28,450 bases of DNA from a virus (Duplodnaviria; Caudoviricetes), in IMG/VR virus record IMGVR_UViG_3300032116_001031, positions 1 through 28,450 of that record; one strand, given 5' to 3'. The notes under the pieces were generated by a model that was not told the DNA's origin, made no database searches, and worked only from the letters and a program-made list of their open reading frames with translations. This document shows positions 1-28,450 of the stretch, piece after piece. Each line of letters starts with the position of its first letter. Within the stretch, counting starts at the first letter, position 1. The position numbers were made by a program, and so were the translations under genes.

Positions 1-43
1 ATAAACGCGGGTGCGTGCTTTGTAGGATTGGAGCCGCCCTACC

Positions 44-1258
44 CTAGCGGGTTGCGCGTCGCTGCGCTCTGTTCAGTGGTTGCCCCGGCGCAGGGCGCTT
101 CTTGCGCGCGGTCATCCTCTCCACGAGTGGCAGCCAGGACTCCGCAAACACGAGGTCAGCGTCATAGCGCGCCATCGACTGAGCCACGGCAGCGCGGTCA
201 ATCCCTCCGCCTCGTGACTCCTCATACACCTCCTGCATAGCGGCATAGCCTGCCTCCGTGTTGGCAATGGCAAAGTATGACCCCTGGTATTCATCCCAGA
301 CGCGCTGCGCTTTGACCTTGCGCCCGTGTGGGCCCAATAGTTCAGGCTGGGCGCTGAAGTCAGTCACGATGGCTGGGACTCCGCACGACTGCGCCTCCAC
401 TACGGGAATGCCAAACCCTTCGCCCATTGAAAGCAGTAGCGTGGCGTCAGCGGCGGAATACATCTGGGCAATGGCGTCCTGCGGGATGCCGTTGCGAAAG
501 TGGACCGGGTGTGGGTATCGGACTCGGTGTGGGTCAATCCCTGCCTGCGCCACGAGGCGCGGAATGTTTACGCCCTCACTGTGCCCATTGGGCTCGGTGT
601 GCAGCATCCAGTACACATCCTTGCGGTCAGCCATCAGTGGCGCCATAACATCCACCATCTCACCAAACCCTTTGCGGACTGGAATGCGTCCACGATTGGC
701 GGCATTCGTCACGACAAGGAATGCCTCGTCAGGGATGCCCATTGCCTTGCGTGCATCCTTGCCAGTATCTTGGAACACGCTGCGGTCAATAGCGTGCGGG
801 ATGTACGCCACCTCATCTCTCGGATGCCCAGCCTCCAGCAGCATCTCCTCTCCGAACTTGCTCATCGCAATCGCAAAGTGCCGCCCATCGCTCAGAAACT
901 TGTATACCTGCGGCGGCAGTGGGTTGTGGTCAACGGGAGTCCAGCACGCCAAGTTGAGTTCCCTGAATCCATCCACGCCGTTAAGTGGCCAGAGGTCAAA
1001 GAGCACTACGCCAAACCCCGGCTCATCGTTAATCCAGGCGCGCATTGTTTCTGGCGCAGCGTCAATGCTGTAGCGCAGTAGCCCTTCTGGGAAGATGGGG
1101 TGACCGTGCGCGCAGTTCAGCATCACTTGCGCGCCGTGATTCGCTGCCACTGCAACTTCGTGCCCCGCTCCTACCAATCGATGTACGACTTGCGCCGTCT
1201 GCATCCCATAGCCTGACGGGATGTGGCAAGCGTTGGAATACCAGGCAATGCGACTCAT
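44..1258 (-). CDS. GT-B fold glycosyltransferase, family 4-like
   Basis: Start MSRIAW at 1258 follows a GAGGAGG RBS (the track ORF starting at 1417 overextends). Motifs: N-terminal PSGYG, IPHAID, RKG and the EX7E motif EGFGIPVVEAQSCGVP. Confidence 0.9.
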   Translation of the reverse strand: MSRIAWYSNACHIPSGYGMQTAQVVHRLVGAGHEVAVAANHGAQVMLNCAHGHPIFPEGLLRYSIDAAPETMRAWINDEPGFGVVLFDLWPLNGVDGFRELNLACWTPVDHNPLPPQVYKFLSDGRHFAIAMSKFGEEMLLEAGHPRDEVAYIPHAIDRSVFQDTGKDARKAMGIPDEAFLVVTNAANRGRIPVRKGFGEMVDVMAPLMADRKDVYWMLHTEPNGHSEGVNIPRLVAQAGIDPHRVRYPHPVHFRNGIPQDAIAQMYSAADATLLLSMGEGFGIPVVEAQSCGVPAIVTDFSAQPELLGPHGRKVKAQRVWDEYQGSYFAIANTEAGYAAMQEVYEESRGGGIDRAAVAQSMARYDADLVFAESWLPLVERMTARKKRPAPGQPLNRAQRRATR

Positions 1259-1268
1259 CTGACCCTCC

Positions 1269-1583
1269 TCACTTGTGCTTCGTGCGTCTGCCGTGACACC
1301 TTCTGCATAGTACAGCCAGCCTATGCTCGGGCGCAAGTAGCACTCCGCCTCGGCTGATAGGGTCAAGGTGGTCCACGGTGAGGTCGGCAGTCGTGCCGCA
1401 AATCTCGCACCAGCCACGCTTGCGCCGGAGTTGGGCGCTCAGTTTGCGCCACGCGGTGTCGGCATACGGGCTGACCCCTTTGTTGCGGGAATACTTCGCC
1501 AGCATCTCTGCGCGGTGCGCCTTGCATCGATTGCCCATTGAGGTCAGGGCTCCGCAGTCAATACACGGGCGCTGGAATGTCAC
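1269..1583 (-). CDS. HNH endonuclease (HK97 gp74-like packaging-associated)
   Basis: CxxC motifs, LTVDHLDPISRGG, and LCRRCHGRRT. Position near the genome end is typical of cos phages. Confidence 0.9.
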   Translation of the reverse strand: MTFQRPCIDCGALTSMGNRCKAHRAEMLAKYSRNKGVSPYADTAWRKLSAQLRRKRGWCEICGTTADLTVDHLDPISRGGVLLAPEHRLAVLCRRCHGRRTKHK

Positions 1584-1990
1584 GAGCGTGGGAAGTCTGG
1601 CAACGGAATACTTGGTGCGAGGAGGATGGAGAGGTGGTCCACGAGGCGCTCTGTCTGCATCTCATACTGCCTGTCAAACACTGCCCAGGCGAGTTTGCCC
1701 AGAGGCTCCTCCATCGCCTCTACGGTGTGGTCAAGCCGTGCGGTCAGGAGGTGAAGCATCTCGTGGGTGAGCACCTCTCGCTGCCGCTCAGGAGATTGGG
1801 CCCAAAAGTCGTGGCTGACTCTCAACTCGGCAGTCTTGGCAACTTCGCTCGGGTTGATGTCCGCCCACGCTTCCACATCTGACGCCTCTTGCGCAATGGT
1901 GACGCGCCACTCGGCAACATTCAGCGCGCGCTGGAGGTCGGCAACATACTCCTCAAGTGCCTCCCATTTGGTGCGCTTCTGTGTTGCCAT
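1580..1990 (-). CDS. Putative zinc metallopeptidase-like protein (HEXXH)
   Basis: EVLTHEMLHLL motif with a downstream E (QTERLVD). GAGGAGG RBS. GTGA overlap with the HNH gene. Confidence 0.65.
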   Translation of the reverse strand: MATQKRTKWEALEEYVADLQRALNVAEWRVTIAQEASDVEAWADINPSEVAKTAELRVSHDFWAQSPERQREVLTHEMLHLLTARLDHTVEAMEEPLGKLAWAVFDRQYEMQTERLVDHLSILLAPSIPLPDFPRS

Positions 1991-2008
1991 TGGGCCTCCT
2001 CAATAAGT

Positions 2009-2093
2009 TGGTGGAGCGGGCGGGGAGTCGCACCCCGCGTTTGCGGTGCTCAGGCTGTGCCTATGTTGAGCCATCCGCCATCTGCGCCGCCCC
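2009..2093 (-). ncRNA. tRNA-Ala-like / tmRNA tRNA-like-domain mimic RNA (85 nt, encoded CCA)
   Basis: Minus strand reads GGGGCGG...GCGGGG TGCGACT CCCCGC CCGCTCC A CCA. This gives a 7-bp acceptor stem with G3-U70, discriminator A, CCA, and a T-arm with a 7-nt loop. It is intergenic, with a TACACT -10-like box at 2099-2104. Confidence 0.75.
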
Positions 2094-2106
2094 AGGAGAG
2101 TGTAGT

Positions 2107-2137
2107 GCTGGCTGATGGGAGGACACCACCAGCCAGC
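2107..2137 (-). terminator. Hairpin after the 2142 stop codon, just upstream of the tRNA-like RNA
   Basis: GCTGGCTG / CAGCCAGC 8-bp inverted repeat extended by TGG/CCA. No strong U-tract. Confidence 0.4.
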
Positions 2138-2141
2138 GTAG

Positions 2142-2531
2142 TCATCGCGCATCGTCTGCCGAGAGTGGCAGGCGTCGTGCTGCGCTTGGGCTCAGTTCTA
2201 GTGGGCTCACGCCACGGAGCGGGCAGATAGCGTCTGGGCATAGGGCTGGCTCATCCTCGGAGCCGCCGCCCGTACACACGCGGCACATCTCGTCAATGGC
2301 GTACCTGTAGATGCGAATCTCTTGACGAATGCCGCCCGTGATGCTCTCCGTGCCGATGGCTTTGAGTTTCACCCATTCGATGTCCTCCAGGGATGGCAAC
2401 ACTCCGCCAAAGTAGCGCTCTCGCATCCAGTGCACCGTGCGCCCGTGGTCAGGCATCAGGGAGAACAACTTGTTTGGCTTGATGCTTAGTGTTGACGCCC
2501 ATACACGAGTCGCTGCACGAAACTCGTCCAC
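2142..2531 (-). CDS. Hypothetical protein with C-terminal Cys cluster (start uncertain)
   Basis: CRVC...CPDAICPL zinc-finger-like end. The first plausible start not buried deep in the upstream gene is GTG at 2531. Confidence 0.55.
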   Translation of the reverse strand: MDEFRAATRVWASTLSIKPNKLFSLMPDHGRTVHWMRERYFGGVLPSLEDIEWVKLKAIGTESITGGIRQEIRIYRYAIDEMCRVCTGGGSEDEPALCPDAICPLRGVSPLELSPSAARRLPLSADDAR

Positions 2532-2917
2532 GATGGTTTGCGTGTCGGCATCTCGCTGATGACCACCCGCACCACGCCGTGATGCAAAGGCGCGAGGTCC
2601 ACCATTGCGTGTGGACTTATGTCGATTGCCCTGCTCTTGTTTGTCCATACCCTCCTCAAGTCTTTGGCGCATCTGCCGCACCAATCCACTACCTGTACCA
2701 CCGTGCACCGAGCCCGGTCATCTGCTCTGCAGACTCGCAGTGTATAGGGTTTGTCACCCCAGCGCCAGGAGCCCACTGCCGCATAGTGCGTGATGCCCTG
2801 CCTCGTGTACCACGAGGACTGCCCGTTGCGCTCTGCGTCATACCACGATGCGACACCCACCTCTGGCACTCCTGACGGTGTAAGCGTCAATGCGAGTGCG
2901 AGGAGGAGCGCCATCAT
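2486..2917 (-). CDS. Secreted double-psi beta-barrel protein (RlpA/expansin/barwin-like), possible lytic transglycosylase
   Basis: Hydrophobic N-terminus, GVASWYD, VQVVDWCGRC, RAIDISPHAM, GVVRVVI. Confidence 0.8.
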   Translation of the reverse strand: MMALLLALALTLTPSGVPEVGVASWYDAERNGQSSWYTRQGITHYAAVGSWRWGDKPYTLRVCRADDRARCTVVQVVDWCGRCAKDLRRVWTNKSRAIDISPHAMVDLAPLHHGVVRVVISEMPTRKPSWTSFVQRLVYGRQH

Positions 2918-3285
2918 TCTCTTGGAGCCTCCTTGCCGAACCAGGCAATGAAGTCATCCAGGTCAAGCACAATCATCGTCCTGCGCCTGCCTCCTGCTCC
3001 TGGTGAATCGCCAACCACAAGCGCTGCTAACTGGTCACCCTTGACGGGAATAGTTCGCAGCCACGAGTCCAGGCGCTCAGGGTATGACTTGCCTACCTTG
3101 CACTGAATCGCAATCCAGTCGTTAGCAACATCTTGCTTGCCACCAAACTGCCCCACGCGTTGGGCCCCAATACGCTTTGCGACTTCGCGCTCAAATGCGT
3201 TGCCACGAGCGCGCGCATTCTTGCCGCGCCTGCTCTTAGCGGGGTCAATCATCTGGCGCGTTGCCTCATCCTTGAAGTGCCCCAT
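2914..3285 (-). CDS. PD-(D/E)XK nuclease, putative Holliday junction resolvase (Hjc-like)
   Basis: RGNAFEREVAK...QDV...IQCK pattern. Confidence 0.75.
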   Translation of the reverse strand: MGHFKDEATRQMIDPAKSRRGKNARARGNAFEREVAKRIGAQRVGQFGGKQDVANDWIAIQCKVGKSYPERLDSWLRTIPVKGDQLAALVVGDSPGAGGRRRTMIVLDLDDFIAWFGKEAPRE

Positions 3286-3572
3286 CAGATGAGCCTTGCC
3301 AGGATTGCCGTGCCGCCGTCGCTCAGGGTGAACCTACTCTGCTGCAACTCCATCACGCCGTGTTTCACGAGGTCGGCATTGGTCTTGCGATTGCCGATGC
3401 CCTCATACAAGAAAAACCAGCCGTCAGGCGCAACGGCATCCGCGTAGCGCTGCGAGAGAATGCACCACGCGCGGCCACTTGAACCGGGCTCCTCACACCA
3501 CGCATCAGCGCCGTCCTGTACGGCAATGACGCGGTCATCCAGGAATGGTGCTGGGCGCTCGATGCGACTCAC
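3285..3572 (-). CDS. Hypothetical protein
   Basis: GTG start at 3572 overlaps the upstream TGA (GTGA). The stop overlaps the next ATG. Confidence 0.65.
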   Translation of the reverse strand: MSRIERPAPFLDDRVIAVQDGADAWCEEPGSSGRAWCILSQRYADAVAPDGWFFLYEGIGNRKTNADLVKHGVMELQQSRFTLSDGGTAILARLI

Positions 3573-3754
3573 TTGACACACCCTCGGTGATACCAGCACC
3601 ACCGCGTCTGGCGTCGCGTGCCCGCATAGGCAATCGTCTTGACGCGCCAGGCATCTCGCAGGGCGCTGAGCGTTCCTCCGCAGGAGTCGCACTGTGTTGC
3701 CGTGAACACTGGCTCTCTCCTGGGCCCACCGCGCTGTGTTTTTACTGCTGCCAT
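3569..3754 (-). CDS. Small zinc-binding hypothetical protein
   Basis: CDSC ... HRGC motifs. GGAG RBS. Confidence 0.6.
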   Translation of the reverse strand: MAAVKTQRGGPRREPVFTATQCDSCGGTLSALRDAWRVKTIAYAGTRRQTRWCWYHRGCVK

Positions 3755-3924
3755 AAGGTGCTCCTTGTTATCCAGACGATGGTGGCAAGCGCCAGCATCA
3801 GGTATAGCGTACCCGCTGTGGCGCTGCCGCGTCGTGACGCCTCAGGCAGCGACACCGCTACCAGGAGCGCCATCACGAGGTGCGCCGCTGCAATCACGAC
3901 GCCAATGCTATCCCAGCCGCTCAT
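3742..3924 (-). CDS. Small two-helix membrane protein
   Basis: MSGWDSIG start at 3924 with ATGA overlap. Two hydrophobic stretches. Confidence 0.65.
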   Translation of the reverse strand: MSGWDSIGVVIAAAHLVMALLVAVSLPEASRRGSATAGTLYLMLALATIVWITRSTLWQQ

Positions 3925-4133
3925 CCGCGCACCTGCCCGAGAATAATTGCCAAGCGCTCGCAGGCAAGTTCCACCGCCTTGTCGGTTGTCCCAGCCGTGA
4001 ATGTCAACTCCTCTCCCATAGAATCCTCCAGCACCACCGTGAATCCTTGCGGGCTCCATAGCACGCTGTCGTACCTGTAGCCGAGCATTGCCGCTAGTGT
4101 GCCGAGATTCTCCAGCGTGTATTCGCCAGTCAT
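3921..4133 (-). CDS. Hypothetical protein
   Basis: GAGGAG RBS. ATGA coupling at both ends. Confidence 0.65.
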   Translation of the reverse strand: MTGEYTLENLGTLAAMLGYRYDSVLWSPQGFTVVLEDSMGEELTFTAGTTDKAVELACERLAIILGQVRG

Positions 4134-4690
4134 AGGCTCTCCTCGTCAATCCGGTCCACGAGTTGCCAGAATGCGCGCTCTGCCGTCAGGTCAGTCGTGT
4201 CAATCTGGATGTCGAATGGCGCTGCCTTCCAAGCCTGCTCCGTGATGTCGTGCGTTGCAACGAGGCCACCGATGCGTTGCGCCCTGACCTCTGCCGAGGC
4301 GTGGACGCGCACCAGGAGGAGTTGCGGGTCAGCAGACTTCAGATACTCCGCCTCACGAGGCAGTCGCACATCGTCAATGACCACGCTGTACCCCATCTTG
4401 GTCAGGTCAAAGTAGTCGCGCCTCCAGACGCGCAGCCAGAAGTCGTTGTCAACCTCTCGGAGCGCTGCGCCAACATCCTGAAACAACTCACGCCCTGTTA
4501 GCGGGGTTGCGCCCGAATAGCGCTGCACCGTCAGTGCCTCACGCTTGCCGAGGCTAGGATAGGCAAGGCGGGTCACCTCCTTGATGGCGTCTGCAATCCC
4601 GTGTCGCTGGTATCCGCGGAACTCCACCAACTGTTCCGCCAGGGTGGTCTTGCCCGAGCCCTGGGGCCCAATGAGTGCCACGCTACGCAT
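4130..4690 (-). CDS. Deoxynucleoside monophosphate kinase (T4 gp1-like P-loop kinase)
   Basis: Start MRSVALIG at 4690. Walker A GPQGSGKT, then IADAIK, RELFQDVG, VVIDDVR, HDITE. Confidence 0.85.
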   Translation of the reverse strand: MRSVALIGPQGSGKTTLAEQLVEFRGYQRHGIADAIKEVTRLAYPSLGKREALTVQRYSGATPLTGRELFQDVGAALREVDNDFWLRVWRRDYFDLTKMGYSVVIDDVRLPREAEYLKSADPQLLLVRVHASAEVRAQRIGGLVATHDITEQAWKAAPFDIQIDTTDLTAERAFWQLVDRIDEESL

Positions 4691-5066
4691 AGTTGTTCTC
4701 CTCATACCAGGCGCGGACAAATGCCCGCAGTTCGTCCAGTGTATCTCCCACCTTCCGAGCCGTGTCAACCCCATCCTCCGCCCAGCCCATAATCTGCCTG
4801 ACCTCATAGACACGAGTGCCGTGTTCGTCCTGCTCTCCCGTCACGAGGAGCACCGTGAACCCCGGACTCCGCGCCAGGGCTCGGAGGAGAATGCGCTGAC
4901 CCTCCTTGATGCTCTCCTCTGGGCGCTTCCACTCCTGTACAAGAAATGCGTTGCCCCTCTCTGCTATCAAGTCCAAGTTGCTGAAGCCCCACCTCGGGTT
5001 TGATTCGATGAGCCCGTCCAGGTCGGTGGTGTCGATGTGCGGAGCAAACCTGTTCCTCATCGTCAT
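4683..5066 (-). CDS. Hypothetical protein, restriction-endonuclease-like fold
   Basis: SNLDLIAE...LVQEWK resembles a (P)D...EXK core. Confidence 0.5.
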   Translation of the reverse strand: MTMRNRFAPHIDTTDLDGLIESNPRWGFSNLDLIAERGNAFLVQEWKRPEESIKEGQRILLRALARSPGFTVLLVTGEQDEHGTRVYEVRQIMGWAEDGVDTARKVGDTLDELRAFVRAWYEENNYA

Positions 5067-5509
5067 CGGACTCCTCCTCTCAGGATAATCTCGCCAACTC
5101 GCATTGGGCTCTTAGAATAAGTGTCTATCTCTTTCTCTCTCTCTTTCTCTTTCTCTTTCTCGGGGTGTTTCTTTTGCGTTTCATTTGCGTTTCTTTGAGC
5201 CTCTCTGAAGCGTGAAACACGCTGTGCTCGTGTCGGGTCTACTTGATGTTTTGACCAGTTTGCGACAAAAACTGAATCGGAAGTTGCAAGAATCAACTCT
5301 GATTTGACAAGAGTTTGGATGTGCTTGTGGTACTCCTTTGGCAATAGCGCCTTGAGATGCGCCAGGCTCTGGAACTGACCCTGTGGACGCTGCCGCTTGG
5401 CCCGGGTCAGCACCTTGATGTATGTGAGTTGGGCGAGTTTCGGCAGGACTGCCACCTTGCCGTCCTCATCCCATCCCGTGCTCAACTTAATCCAACTGCC
5501 GTTGCTCAT
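5063..5509 (-). CDS. Putative phage replication initiator / replisome organiser-like protein
   Basis: N-terminal WIKL...DGKV, then NWSKHQ, RAQRVSRFR and an EKEKEKEREKE linker typical of phage initiators. Lies downstream of the recombination genes. Confidence 0.6.
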   Translation of the reverse strand: MSNGSWIKLSTGWDEDGKVAVLPKLAQLTYIKVLTRAKRQRPQGQFQSLAHLKALLPKEYHKHIQTLVKSELILATSDSVFVANWSKHQVDPTRAQRVSRFREAQRNANETQKKHPEKEKEKEREKEIDTYSKSPMRVGEIILRGGVR

Positions 5510-5668
5510 TTACTCCTCCTCACAGTCATACATTTGTTTGTCGCAGTTCGTGCATTGTGCTACGAAACAGCCCTGCTCGTGTCCTGCTTTCTCGCAATCC
5601 CTCCACTCAAGCAGAGTGTCTGGATGGCATTCCTCCTGCTTGTCATCCTGTTGATTCTGTATTGCCAT
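5510..5668 (-). CDS. 52-aa Cys-rich protein missed by the ORF track
   Basis: AGAGGAGG RBS, then MAIQNQQDDKQEECHPDTLLEWRDCEKAGHEQGCFVAQCTNCDKQMYDCEEE. Its TAA abuts the next ATG. Confidence 0.7.
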   Translation of the reverse strand: MAIQNQQDDKQEECHPDTLLEWRDCEKAGHEQGCFVAQCTNCDKQMYDCEEE

Positions 5669-5702
5669 TTGACCTCCTCTTGTCCCGCTGGTGCGGGTTA
5701 TT

Positions 5703-5732
5703 GGGAGGCGGCAGACTGCGCCACCGCCTCCC
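5703..5732 (-). terminator. GC-rich hairpin after the annealase gene
   Basis: GGGAGGCGG (5703-5711) pairs with CCGCCTCCC (5724-5732). Confidence 0.5.
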
Positions 5733-5750
5733 GTGTGCTAGTGGGCCCAC

Positions 5751-6494
5751 CTAGAATGGCAACTCCTCTAGAGATTCCTCTGGAACCATACGAGGCTTGG
5801 ATGGAGCGGGTGTGCCGCTTTGCGCCGCAACCCACTTGGCGCTTGGCTTGTCCTTGCACCACGAGCCGTCAGGAGCCTTGTGGCTTGCCGCCCAGAATGG
5901 GTTGTATGGCTTGCCCGTAGCCTTGCTGACGCCTCCTGGCTTCAGGCTCCAGGACTCTCCGTGAGAGCACGCCCCTTCGCCTGCCGTATCCGCAAAGAGC
6001 ATTGCTGCCTTGAGCGCCAACTGCGCATCGTCGCTCAGGGTGCTTGCAGAATCCCCTGCAATGGGTGTAGGAGCCACCAGGACGGGCGTTTGACCCTTAT
6101 TGGGTGTCTGAGTACCCCCCTGGCTCTTATCAGGGCTGTATAGGCTCCTGCCCACCCCTATCTGCGCCGCGCACCTGCGGAGCGCGTCCGAGGCTGCGGA
6201 CTTCAGAGGCTCGTCATCCTGGCTGCTGTTGGGATAGCCGAAGTCCTGCCGCATCGTGGTCTTGCCGTCAACCACGATGATGAGGTTGCCGTGTACCACG
6301 CTCCGTGCGGGGTCAGCCACCTTGACCTCAAACTGCCAACCTGCGATGCCGAGGACATCGTCAAGCCGCTGTGCGACTGCCCGTGCGTCTGCGTAGGTGA
6401 ACACGAGTCCACCACGCCCCGGTCGCTGCTTTAAGTCCTTGCCATCGAATGGCGCTGCGAGCGCCTGTGCGGTTGTCTGCTTCTCGGTTGTCAT
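5751..6494 (-). CDS. sak: Rad52/22-family single-strand annealing protein (Sak-like)
   Basis: FTYADARAVAQRLDDVLGIAGW and LKSAASDALRRCAAQIGVGRSLY. C-terminal EELPF (SSB-like tail). Confidence 0.85.
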   Translation of the reverse strand: MTTEKQTTAQALAAPFDGKDLKQRPGRGGLVFTYADARAVAQRLDDVLGIAGWQFEVKVADPARSVVHGNLIIVVDGKTTMRQDFGYPNSSQDDEPLKSAASDALRRCAAQIGVGRSLYSPDKSQGGTQTPNKGQTPVLVAPTPIAGDSASTLSDDAQLALKAAMLFADTAGEGACSHGESWSLKPGGVSKATGKPYNPFWAASHKAPDGSWCKDKPSAKWVAAQSGTPAPSKPRMVPEESLEELPF

Positions 6495-26823: not shown

Positions 26824-27711
26824 TCACTCTCCTTGCTTCTGTTCGTCATCCTCATAGCGCATCCCGTACTCGTTGGGCTCCGCTGGAATGCTGAGCCCTG
26901 GTTTGCGTCGCAACTTATTGCGCTTGAATGGAGTGTAGTCGACATAGTGATGCCATCTCCCAAAGCGCCAGACAATCTTTGACACATCTGGGTGTAAGTC
27001 CACCTGCATCTTGGACTTAGGCAGCGTGCCTTCTTTGGCGTAGAACTCTGCGGTGTTCCCACCCTTGACTGTCTGCGTGCGGAGTTTCATTTGCAGGAAT
27101 GCGTTGAACTGTACCGTGCACCAACCATCTTTGAGCATTCGCAGGCTCAGGTCGGTGTCCTCGTTGTATCTGCCGCGCCACCGATACGGCACATCATTCC
27201 TGATGAGGTTGCACGAGTAGATGCGGGTGTTCAGGGCAAAGGGTGGCTGCTTGCTCTTGCGACTCGCAAACATAAAGTAGTTGGGCCCACTCATTGCCAC
27301 ATTGTCGTAGCGGTCAACGAAGTCCTCCATCGCAGCGAAGATGGCGCCAGTCTTGGCTGGCACCTTGAAGTTGCGGTTGAGCCTAAAGAATCCGTCAATG
27401 TTGTCATCCATCACCCAGTGGCTTGTTGCCCCGGACTTGATGGCGTGGTCCCACGCAAAGTTGCGCGCTGGACCTGGCCCCTTGCTCTTAGTCATTCCGA
27501 GGTCATCGCAGGGGTCATAATCAACCTGGTACTGCTTGTCAAGAACTAGCAGCGTCGCAGACGAGTCCACTTGCCGCGCATACTCATCGTGCTCCTGCTC
27601 CTCAACAACGATGTAGTGCGGCACGCCCATCTCGTGCAACGAGCGACTCGTCAGGCGAGAGTCTGCTCTGCCTTTGCTGACGATGTATAGCGGGTGCTTA
27701 GGATTTGTCAT
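26824..27711 (-). CDS. GT-A fold TET-associated (TAGT)/GREB1-like glycosyltransferase
   Basis: YIVSKGR, ARNFAWD, WVMDDNI (DxD-like), NEDTDLSLR, KGGNT. Start is 27711 or 27717. Confidence 0.8.
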   Translation of the reverse strand: MTNPKHPLYIVSKGRADSRLTSRSLHEMGVPHYIVVEEQEHDEYARQVDSSATLLVLDKQYQVDYDPCDDLGMTKSKGPGPARNFAWDHAIKSGATSHWVMDDNIDGFFRLNRNFKVPAKTGAIFAAMEDFVDRYDNVAMSGPNYFMFASRKSKQPPFALNTRIYSCNLIRNDVPYRWRGRYNEDTDLSLRMLKDGWCTVQFNAFLQMKLRTQTVKGGNTAEFYAKEGTLPKSKMQVDLHPDVSKIVWRFGRWHHYVDYTPFKRNKLRRKPGLSIPAEPNEYGMRYEDDEQKQGE

Positions 27712-28342
27712 CGACATAACGCTTGGTGACCAGTCTGCCAATCTCTGCCTCTGGGAACCAGATGCTGCGAGTCTTGGGGGTCAGCGTTTGTCCAACCAAC
27801 TTGGAGAATGCTTCCAAGTCCTCTGGCGTATTGAAGTGGACGATGACTTGCTTCCACGAAGTCTGGTCATCCTGCGTGAACTCTGGCATCCCAGCCCACT
27901 CTGCGAGGCGCTCGGTGGCTGACATTCCGCTGCCGTCGTTGCCGAGATTGCTGAGGACATTTGTCAACTCTGCCGAGTCCGTGGACACCTCCGCCAATAG
28001 TTCAGCGAGTTTCTCCTTGTCTGTTCCAGCGAGTGCAGCCAACGGGTCAAGCGTCGCAAGCACCAGCGCCTCCTCCTCTGGACTCAAGTCGACATACGCC
28101 ACTGGGATTGTTGCGGCATCCTCTCTGAGCGCAAGGCTGACGCGCATATGCCCGTCCACCAGATGACCCGTCCTGCGGTTGACGATGACTGACTGCACCC
28201 AGCCCACCTGGTCTAGTACGCCTTTCATCGCATCCTGCTGTGCCTTTGGATGGATGCGCCAGTTCGCTGGGTTTGCGAGCAACTGGTCCGGAGCCTCCTC
28301 ACCGTGTCCAACGATGCGTGACTTGAAGTCAATGCCTGACAT
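27698..28342 (-). CDS. ParB/Srx N-terminal domain protein
   Basis: NPANWRIHP, GWVQSVIV, LVDGHMRV. Start MSGIDF at 28342 after CAGGAGG. Confidence 0.85.
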   Translation of the reverse strand: MSGIDFKSRIVGHGEEAPDQLLANPANWRIHPKAQQDAMKGVLDQVGWVQSVIVNRRTGHLVDGHMRVSLALREDAATIPVAYVDLSPEEEALVLATLDPLAALAGTDKEKLAELLAEVSTDSAELTNVLSNLGNDGSGMSATERLAEWAGMPEFTQDDQTSWKQVIVHFNTPEDLEAFSKLVGQTLTPKTRSIWFPEAEIGRLVTKRYVDDKS

Positions 28343-28382
28343 TATTCCCTCCTGCTTTGGGCCCACTGCTCGGGCTCGTCTG

Positions 28383-28411
28383 ATGGTAGCACCAACCAGA
28401 ACCCATCGCAA
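28383..28411 (-). promoter_or_regulatory. Predicted promoter for the ParB-TAGT-terminase operon
   Basis: TTGCGA (28406-28411), 17-bp spacer, extended TGn-TACCAT (28383-28388). Confidence 0.6.
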
Positions 28412-28450
28412 AACCAAAACCAAACAACCTCTCCGCGTGTACGCGGGACA

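Follow-up and report, generated by a model that had tools for sequence, protein, structure and literature searches.

The window, by which we mean the whole stretch of 28,450 nucleotides analysed here, is a 96%-complete genome of a tailed phage. On its minus strand it carries an 85-nt gene for a tRNA-like RNA with the marks of alanine identity, which is flanked by a 12-bp hairpin on one side and by the ribosome-binding site (RBS) of a gene for a HEXXH protein on the other, followed by HNH and glycosyltransferase genes. The features of the locus are as follows:

2142..2708, minus: upstream ORF with a Cys-rich C-terminal end (part of the context)
2107..2137, minus: 12-bp hairpin with the loop NNUCCUC, a separate element kept with or without the RNA gene
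2099..2104, minus: TACACT, candidate -10 hexamer 5 nt upstream of G1 (putative promoter)
2009..2093, minus: 85-nt alanine-marked tRNA-like RNA gene, consisting of a tmRNA-type tRNA-like domain (TLD) only, with a 7/6 acceptor-T helix and a short D-loop (from sequence, fold and covariation)
2087..2093, minus: 5' strand of the acceptor stem, GGGGCGG, with the G3 of G3·U70 (from fold and covariation)
2079..2086, minus: stemless 8-nt D-loop CGCAGAUG, with the elbow dinucleotide A11-G12 and without a UUCG-type SmpB-contact stretch
2043..2078, minus: helix 2, closed and interrupted, with a short distal hairpin, variable in the family (from fold and covariation)
2039..2042, minus: linker AAAC, the counterpart of GGAC in tmRNA, with the final AC kept
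2020..2038, minus: T-arm with the 6-bp stem GCGGGG/CCCCGC and the loop UGCGACU, which has G55 (from fold and covariation)
2009..2019, minus: 3' strand of the acceptor stem, CCGCUCC, with discriminator A73 and encoded CCA (from sequence)
1995..2001, minus: RBS GAGGAGG of the downstream gene, 7 nt past the CCA (from sequence)
1580..1990, minus: downstream 136-aa HEXXH protein with a weak SprT-like match (E 0.0023, below the cut-off)

The 85-nt sequence quoted in a preliminary description of the locus is exact at 2093..2009 on the minus strand, and the architecture drawn there was recovered in both the minimum-energy and the centroid folds, with a 7-bp acceptor stem (G3·U70, A73 and CCA), an unpaired 8-nt D-region, a single interrupted helix, a 4-nt linker and a T-arm. 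Two features had gone unremarked, namely that the T-stem is 6 bp long and that the T-loop is UGCGACU, with a G at position 55; acceptor and T-stem together make 13 bp (7 + 6, hereafter 7/6). Just 36 nt, closed by a hairpin, separate the D-loop from the linker, and they contain neither a tag reading frame nor a pseudoknot ring. The description had also set the RNA apart from canonical tRNAs, and on this point the fold, ARAGORN and Rfam agree: there is no cloverleaf, with neither a D-stem nor a 7-nt anticodon loop, ARAGORN run on the whole window made no call, and Rfam at positions 1-6000 (E up to 10) gave no match to tRNA, tmRNA or Y RNA, nor to RF02544, the family of mitochondrial and plastid tmRNAs without a CDS. 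Taken alone, the fold is modestly better than chance (z -1.93, with 6 of 200 shuffles equally good), and our own covariance model scores the window RNA at 80 bits, the RNA being one of its training sequences.

A stricter initial search pattern for the element gave zero matches. With a pattern for the T-loop and the 3' end, 81 viral loci were retrieved; in 78 of them, with lengths of 46-143 nt, the 5' acceptor strand pairs and the T-stem is 6 bp long; the AC of the linker precedes the T-stem in the folding matches, though it lies outside that pattern. All scans combined gave 7/6 relatives in about 100 viral contigs, representing 80 distinct sequences of 46-143 nt, many of which are near-copies from one freshwater phage family, with several positions fixed by the search patterns. 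Complete pairing was imposed by the script filter, so that the kinds of pairs are informative and the percentage paired is not. Compensatory changes, which the preliminary description had proposed to look for in relatives, were found among 43 distinct sequences of 82-85 nt, where both sides had changed in 12 of 25 pairs and 92.8% of the cells pair, as against 38-54% in slid controls and with none of 500 shuffles as high, given that the sequences are related and that the shuffle count is not a probability. Helix 2 was fixed by no pattern, and its main helix shows changes on both sides in six of nine pairs. When the acceptor was left free in the pattern, 65 of 74 loci folded in register, all of which (30 distinct sequences) keep G3·U70 and A73; among the other nine, two turned out to be 3' ends of a tmRNA-like gene of 356 nt and the remainder do not fold in register.

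The D-loop dinucleotide covaries with position 55 of the T-loop. Among the 80 distinct 7/6 sequences, the combination AG/G was seen 59 times and GG/U 19 times, with two exceptions, and when counted by the 35 types of acceptor and T-stem the corresponding figures were 18, 15 and two. The rule is also obeyed by 77 of 80 TLD-only genes with a 5-bp T-stem (7/5), these being the distinct sequences kept among the matches listed after alanine tRNAs and long genes had been dropped. Such covariation is what is expected for the contact at the tRNA elbow, from which we infer a similar contact in three dimensions. The 3' ends of 67 short-loop sequences are ACCA (50), ATCA (14) or AACA (3), a distribution partly fixed by the pattern, and our covariance model gives 61-84 bits to the short-loop members of 75-85 nt and 36 bits to the gene of Mycobacterium phage DS6A. 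We consider the 85-nt element to be almost certainly a real RNA gene.

The shortest members of the family, at 46-57 nt, consist solely of acceptor, elbow loop and T-arm and have no helix 2. Minimal forms of this kind were located at L120:1501-1546(-), L072/L098 (47 nt), L160:246-297 and L163:1501-1557(-), and the one in L160 is preceded by a clear TTGCAA/TATAAT promoter. One viral contig (L330 and L331) has the RNA gene twice, in slightly differing versions and once on each strand, which may be an assembly artefact.

A 6-bp T-stem was at one point taken for a phage novelty, an idea that was ruled out when such stems proved to be common in the tmRNAs of Chloroflexota and in full-length phage tmRNAs; early patterns had overlooked these because the acceptor was fixed. 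The 7/6 helix is present in 23 of 44 parsed chromosomal tmRNAs of Chloroflexota and in all eight from small genomes, and the 47-nt phage form has the same acceptor and T-stem as one chromosomal tmRNA (141 bits). Among the Chloroflexota tmRNAs (L553, L557-L616), 6-bp T-stems, which give a 13-bp acceptor-T helix, are mixed with 5-bp stems within one class, and some of these tmRNAs have unusual T-loops; in one Chloroflexota genome, an EF-Tu-like gene (L553:1572-2765(-)) is convergent with the gene for the chromosomal 7/6 tmRNA. Viral full-length tmRNA-like genes of 295-426 nt with 6-bp T-stems were seen in L137, L140, L141, L143, L151, L157, L158, L168 and L468, with 117 bits on RF00023 for the one in L140.

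A further difference between the phage RNA and the host-type tmRNA lies in the D-loop. A loop of the YCGAC type is present in 59 of 59 chromosomal tmRNAs of Chloroflexota (53 identified by script and six by eye), whereas the UUCG/YYGAC-type stretch is kept in four and missing in 75 of the 80 phage 7/6 sequences, the window RNA being one of those without it. The loops can be arranged in a series, from NGUGG-UUUCG-AC in the chromosomal tmRNAs through the intermediate CGUAG-UAUCG-AC in a 356-nt phage gene with tmRNA-type ends to CGYAG-AY in the short-loop subtype, and the short-loop RNA is likely to be derived from the end of a host-type tmRNA. A search with the short D-loop fixed and either T-stem allowed gave folding matches that were all 7/6 (seven of 151 loci failed the filter and one long match was spurious). 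The related idea that a 7/6 helix forces a short loop, which held at first for 67 of 68 sequences, was weakened by the four 7/6 sequences that keep the long loop.

The SmpB-contact stretch of the D-loop corresponds to U16-G19 in E. coli (YUCGAC). In E. coli tmRNA, U17, C18 and G19 are described as contacting SmpB, with Trp122 of SmpB in a pocket formed by A15, U17 and A334 and with binding dependent on G19 (PMC8363625). The missing stretch suggests that the short-loop 7/6 subtype binds SmpB weakly or not at all, and the statement in the preliminary description that the RNA has the layout bound by SmpB does not hold for this subtype. It could be that the invariant A13, G15 and linker AC represent a compact remnant of the SmpB site. 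The family keeps the features required by readers of the top half of tRNA, AlaRS, RNase P and EF-Tu among them, and drops those required for decoding and trans-translation. The central claim of the description, a phage-borne RNA with alanine identity elements that is unable to decode, is supported by the covariation, the acceptor-free search and the comparison with chromosomal tmRNAs.

The genomic context of the RNA gene is variable. Among 51 viral loci with the HEXXH gene, 12 have the RNA element upstream, of which one is a near-copy with a compensatory change, ten differ in sequence and share the fold, and one is a 47-nt form; the HEXXH gene is present without the RNA gene in most of these loci and is thus not a required partner. 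The RNA gene is cleanly missing in L002, the HEXXH protein of which is 87% identical, and no copy was detected by pattern or covariance model in any of five sister phage genomes, four of them at least 90% complete. A quick tree of a neighbouring protein gave five gains or losses of the RNA gene, one of which stems from a row (L334) that was mislabelled 'none' and does have the RNA. The RNA gene is optional cargo. In two loci, it is part of a tRNA array, between tRNA-Tyr and tRNA-Met with 2-nt spacers, and in unrelated phages it is found between terminase genes or ahead of terminator-like hairpins; within the phage family of the window it usually lies 4-12 nt ahead of an RBS. A sigma-70 scan upstream of the 85-nt RNA gave no full promoter, and of 41 distinct leaders, 13 have the motif TAnnnT at 4-7 nt upstream of G1, compared with 0-3 in 15 control windows.

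The hairpin that precedes the HEXXH gene in loci L001-L051 has a covarying stem of 12-13 bp and a fixed loop NNUCCUC(C), which is complementary to 5-8 bases of the downstream RBS. This suggests either a pseudoknot of the anti-Shine-Dalgarno type or a small RNA by which such sites are blocked; Rfam gave no match for the hairpin at positions 1-6000. A 97-nt form of the RNA gene that lies between terminase genes (L062:1501-1597(-), L076:1429-1525) has a pyrimidine loop of 17-19 nt with CUCCUC, so that a second sequence resembling an anti-SD is associated with RNAs of this class.

No partner gene for the RNA was found by co-occurrence in 16 genomes or by family scans of the window proteins. The sole protein cluster tracking the RNA in the 16 genomes is the upstream ORF (10 of 11 carriers, none of five others), which follows the clade, and the partnership is broken by L002, where the coding sequence for the C-terminal end of the ORF is retained together with the hairpin, the TACACT box and the RBS, all without the RNA gene. 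This ORF is conserved, is replaced by a different protein in the sister clade, and matched no Pfam, PHROG or NCBIfam family, with Atlas leads below 0.9 only. The 6-bp T-stem makes a Chloroflexota host plausible. Matches to the terminase in Chloroflexota are at 44-45%, in three of 401 genomes, next to 43.6% to an actinobacterial phage, and the window glycosyltransferase had no match at E 1e-35 in the 401 Chloroflexota genomes. Genes for a TET-associated glycosyltransferase, a ParB-like protein and a GT4 glycosyltransferase lie at positions 26824-28423 (minus) and 44-1417 (minus) of the window, which suggests hypermodification of DNA or of the cell surface.

The reading that we favour, with a probability of about 0.4, is that the RNA acts in trans as a charged, non-decoding decoy for host proteins that read the T-arm, the acceptor stem and the CCA. 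The RNA would be transcribed from a promoter just upstream, or released by RNase P and 3' trimming from a longer precursor, and then charged with alanine by the host AlaRS. EF-Tu may bind the charged RNA, which, having neither SmpB nor an anticodon, would fail to be accommodated on the ribosome and could accumulate without miscoding. It might then absorb a defence effector directed at tRNA or tmRNA, such as a tail-cutting nuclease or a CCA-modifying toxin, and thereby spare the translation that the phage needs. AlaRS is described as recognising G3·U70 and A73 independently of the anticodon (PMC3968760, PMC3985003), and alanine identity would for this reason be the simplest route to a charged RNA that is unable to miscode.

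Several observations argue for a decoy. The parts that are kept (G3·U70, A73 and the elbow) match such a job, whereas those that are lost served trans-translation, and the position between tRNA-Tyr and tRNA-Met with 2-nt spacers points to a free RNA product. The absence from all five sisters and the gains and losses on the tree resemble the pattern of an arms race. A precedent for the kind of effector that would be decoyed is Cas12a3, which is reported to bind the T-arm, acceptor stem and CCA of tRNA and to tolerate the loss of the other arms (PMC12851939), although the target here is putative. A phage anti-CRISPR is reported to involve fragments of t(m)RNA (PMC11662646), and tmRNA is the predicted target of CoCoNuT systems, via SmpB-like domains (PMC11090510). 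The decoy idea in the preliminary description was directed at tRNA nucleases in general; it stands for factors that read the acceptor, T-arm and CCA, and falls for anticodon nucleases. A point against the decoy reading is that alanine identity is not strictly needed in a decoy for general CCA cutters. More tentatively, we suggest that the family as a whole, down to the 46-nt form, may constitute a distinct class of phage small RNAs, in which the alanine-accepting end of host tmRNA has discarded the SmpB site and provides charged, non-decoding decoys against a defence that attacks acceptor ends.

The main rival of the decoy reading is SmpB titration. According to this explanation, which we find rather unlikely, the RNA would inhibit trans-translation as proposed for DS6A, by binding SmpB through a compact site or by competing with tmRNA for AlaRS and EF-Tu, so that phage proteins made from broken messages would escape tagging. 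A published TLD-only RNA that inhibits tmRNA, perhaps via SmpB (PMC4131195, see also PMC11915505), provides a precedent with a mechanism different from a decoy, and the tmRNA ancestry of the short-loop RNA fits as well. All 44 aligned sequences of 82-85 nt have the same A13, G15 and linker AC, which counts against the decoy if these nucleotides are indeed a remnant of the SmpB site, and SmpB is encoded in five of five Chloroflexota genomes tested and in none of five phage genomes. However, the long loop is kept in DS6A and in 59 of the 80 7/5 TLD-only sequences among the matches listed and is missing in 75 of the 80 7/6 sequences, and the forms of 46-57 nt dispense with helix 2. Sequestration of SmpB, which had been among the proposals of the preliminary description, is weakened by the absent contact stretch, as is the proposal of rescue without tagging.

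A role in cis is improbable, in which the RNA would be a tRNA-like 5' leader or a processing signal, by which the downstream mRNA is matured or the anti-SD hairpin is uncoupled from the RBS. The arrangement in the window would suit such a role, with the RNA flanked on one side by the RBS and on the other by a conserved hairpin, the loop of which could base-pair with this RBS, and with a candidate -10 box 5 nt upstream of G1; the usual position 4-12 nt ahead of an RBS in this phage family also fits it and speaks against the decoy. Yet relatives have other neighbours in unrelated phages, and some are part of tRNA arrays or are followed by terminator-like hairpins, L002 does without the RNA gene while retaining the signals around it, and a processing signal would need neither G3·U70 nor A73.

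Slightly less probable still is a function on the ribosome itself, either in tag-free rescue, with nascent peptides taken over from stalled ribosomes and released, as in the case of the mitochondrial CDS-less tmRNA, or in premature termination as a natural aminoacyl-minihelix. Here the elbow and CCA are intact, and tmRNAs without a CDS are described as persisting in mitochondria and some plastids, with a form of about 65 bp in Mallomonadaceae (PMC11915505). Entry of tmRNA into the A-site is, however, described as dependent on SmpB (PMC3985003, PMC3968760), the contact loop for which is missing, and none of the five phage genomes supplies an SmpB gene of its own. It is very unlikely that the RNA serves as a dedicated donor of alanine to a tRNA-dependent transferase in modification of the cell envelope or DNA: a phage enzyme is reported to modify DNA using charged tRNA (PMC13219725) and the window phage encodes the GT4 and TET-associated glycosyltransferases, but scans of the window proteins gave no GNAT, Fem or MprF family, and the only cluster that tracks the RNA in the 16 genomes is the upstream ORF, which one carrier lacks and whose distribution is that of the clade. 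A remnant without function, for instance an attP site or a displaced ssrA fragment, is already disfavoured and highly improbable, for although the RNA resembles tmRNA ends and is dispensable, both acceptor strands and the covariation of stems and tertiary contacts are retained, the 96%-complete genome has no match to tyrosine integrase (PF00589; serine integrases checked via Pfam scans only), and the four matches to a narrow G55 pattern in 185,579 prokaryotic genomes all lack the fold.

If the decoy reading is true, phages use RNA in counter-defence against effectors that cut or modify the tails of tRNAs, and if it extends to the class as a whole, the family provides both an RNA anti-defence factor and a natural gene for an aminoacyl-minihelix. 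More generally, tRNA-like genes without an anticodon, which are missed by ARAGORN and in the short-loop subtype also by Rfam, leave a common phage cargo unannotated. Full tmRNA, the TLD with the SmpB loop, the TLD without it and the minimal form of 46 nt represent a natural series in which SmpB binding is set apart from charging with alanine and from the shape of the elbow. The family thus makes it testable why phages carry TLD-only RNAs, a question that dates from the single case of DS6A.

The preliminary description regarded the RNA as a candidate for an undescribed system, which went too far, since a TLD-only tmRNA of phage DS6A has been published (PMC4131195, PMC11915505) and genes of this sort are frequently seen in viral contigs. 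Hudson et al. (2014; PMC4131195) list 'Mycobacterium phage DS6A (TLD only)' and report that tmRNA is inhibited by a similar molecule, which perhaps titrates SmpB, and the DS6A form is described together with CDS-less plastid and mitochondrial forms in PMC11915505. For the short-loop 7/6 subtype, we found no account in the literature searched, with most subscription papers outside the reach of that search, and the 'standard, no CDS' set of nine sequences in PMC11915505 may include an entry similar to it. The 7/5 pattern of the DS6A type was present in at least 120 viral stretches, with an estimated 550 or so in IMG/VR; these genes (L169-L288) are mostly overlooked by ARAGORN and have a recurring A-rich bulge and a short hairpin in helix 2.

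Like the DS6A gene, the window RNA is a phage gene of about 83-85 nt with G3·U70, A73, a stemless D-loop, the AC linker, a T-arm, no message and a closed helix 2 that ends in a short hairpin. Unlike the window RNA, which is 7/6 with an A/G55 elbow and no UUCG stretch, the 83-nt gene of DS6A has a 7/5 helix, U55 and a long D-loop of the SmpB type, AAUGG-UGGUCGAC, and RF00023 scores four DS6A-like 7/5 genes at 54-73 bits and detects none of six short-loop 7/6 genes. With the full-length tmRNA of Chloroflexota (ssrA, RF00023), the RNA shares the 7/6 acceptor-T helix, the AC before the T-stem and the alanine marks, with the NGUGG start of the D-loop as a further likeness, but it has no pseudoknots, tag frame or UUCG loop stretch. 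The CDS-less tmRNAs of mitochondria and plastids (RF02544) are likewise TLDs without a message; they are organellar, the mitochondrial form being reported with SmpB, and the window RNA has no RF02544 match. Acceptor identity, T-loop, elbow and occurrence in phage tRNA arrays are shared with tRNA-Ala, in contrast to the missing D-stem and anticodon arm, the 6-bp T-stem and the negative ARAGORN result. The YrlA Y RNA, described as a tRNA mimic (PMC4201824), also has a tRNA-like elbow, whereas the window RNA ends in an acceptor stem and CCA, has no Rfam match, and is not accompanied by a Ro60 family among the proteins scanned. Judged by its sequence, the short-loop 7/6 RNA is a relative of the TLD-only tmRNAs, but we do not file it as a plain member of the DS6A type because it lacks the SmpB-contact loop.
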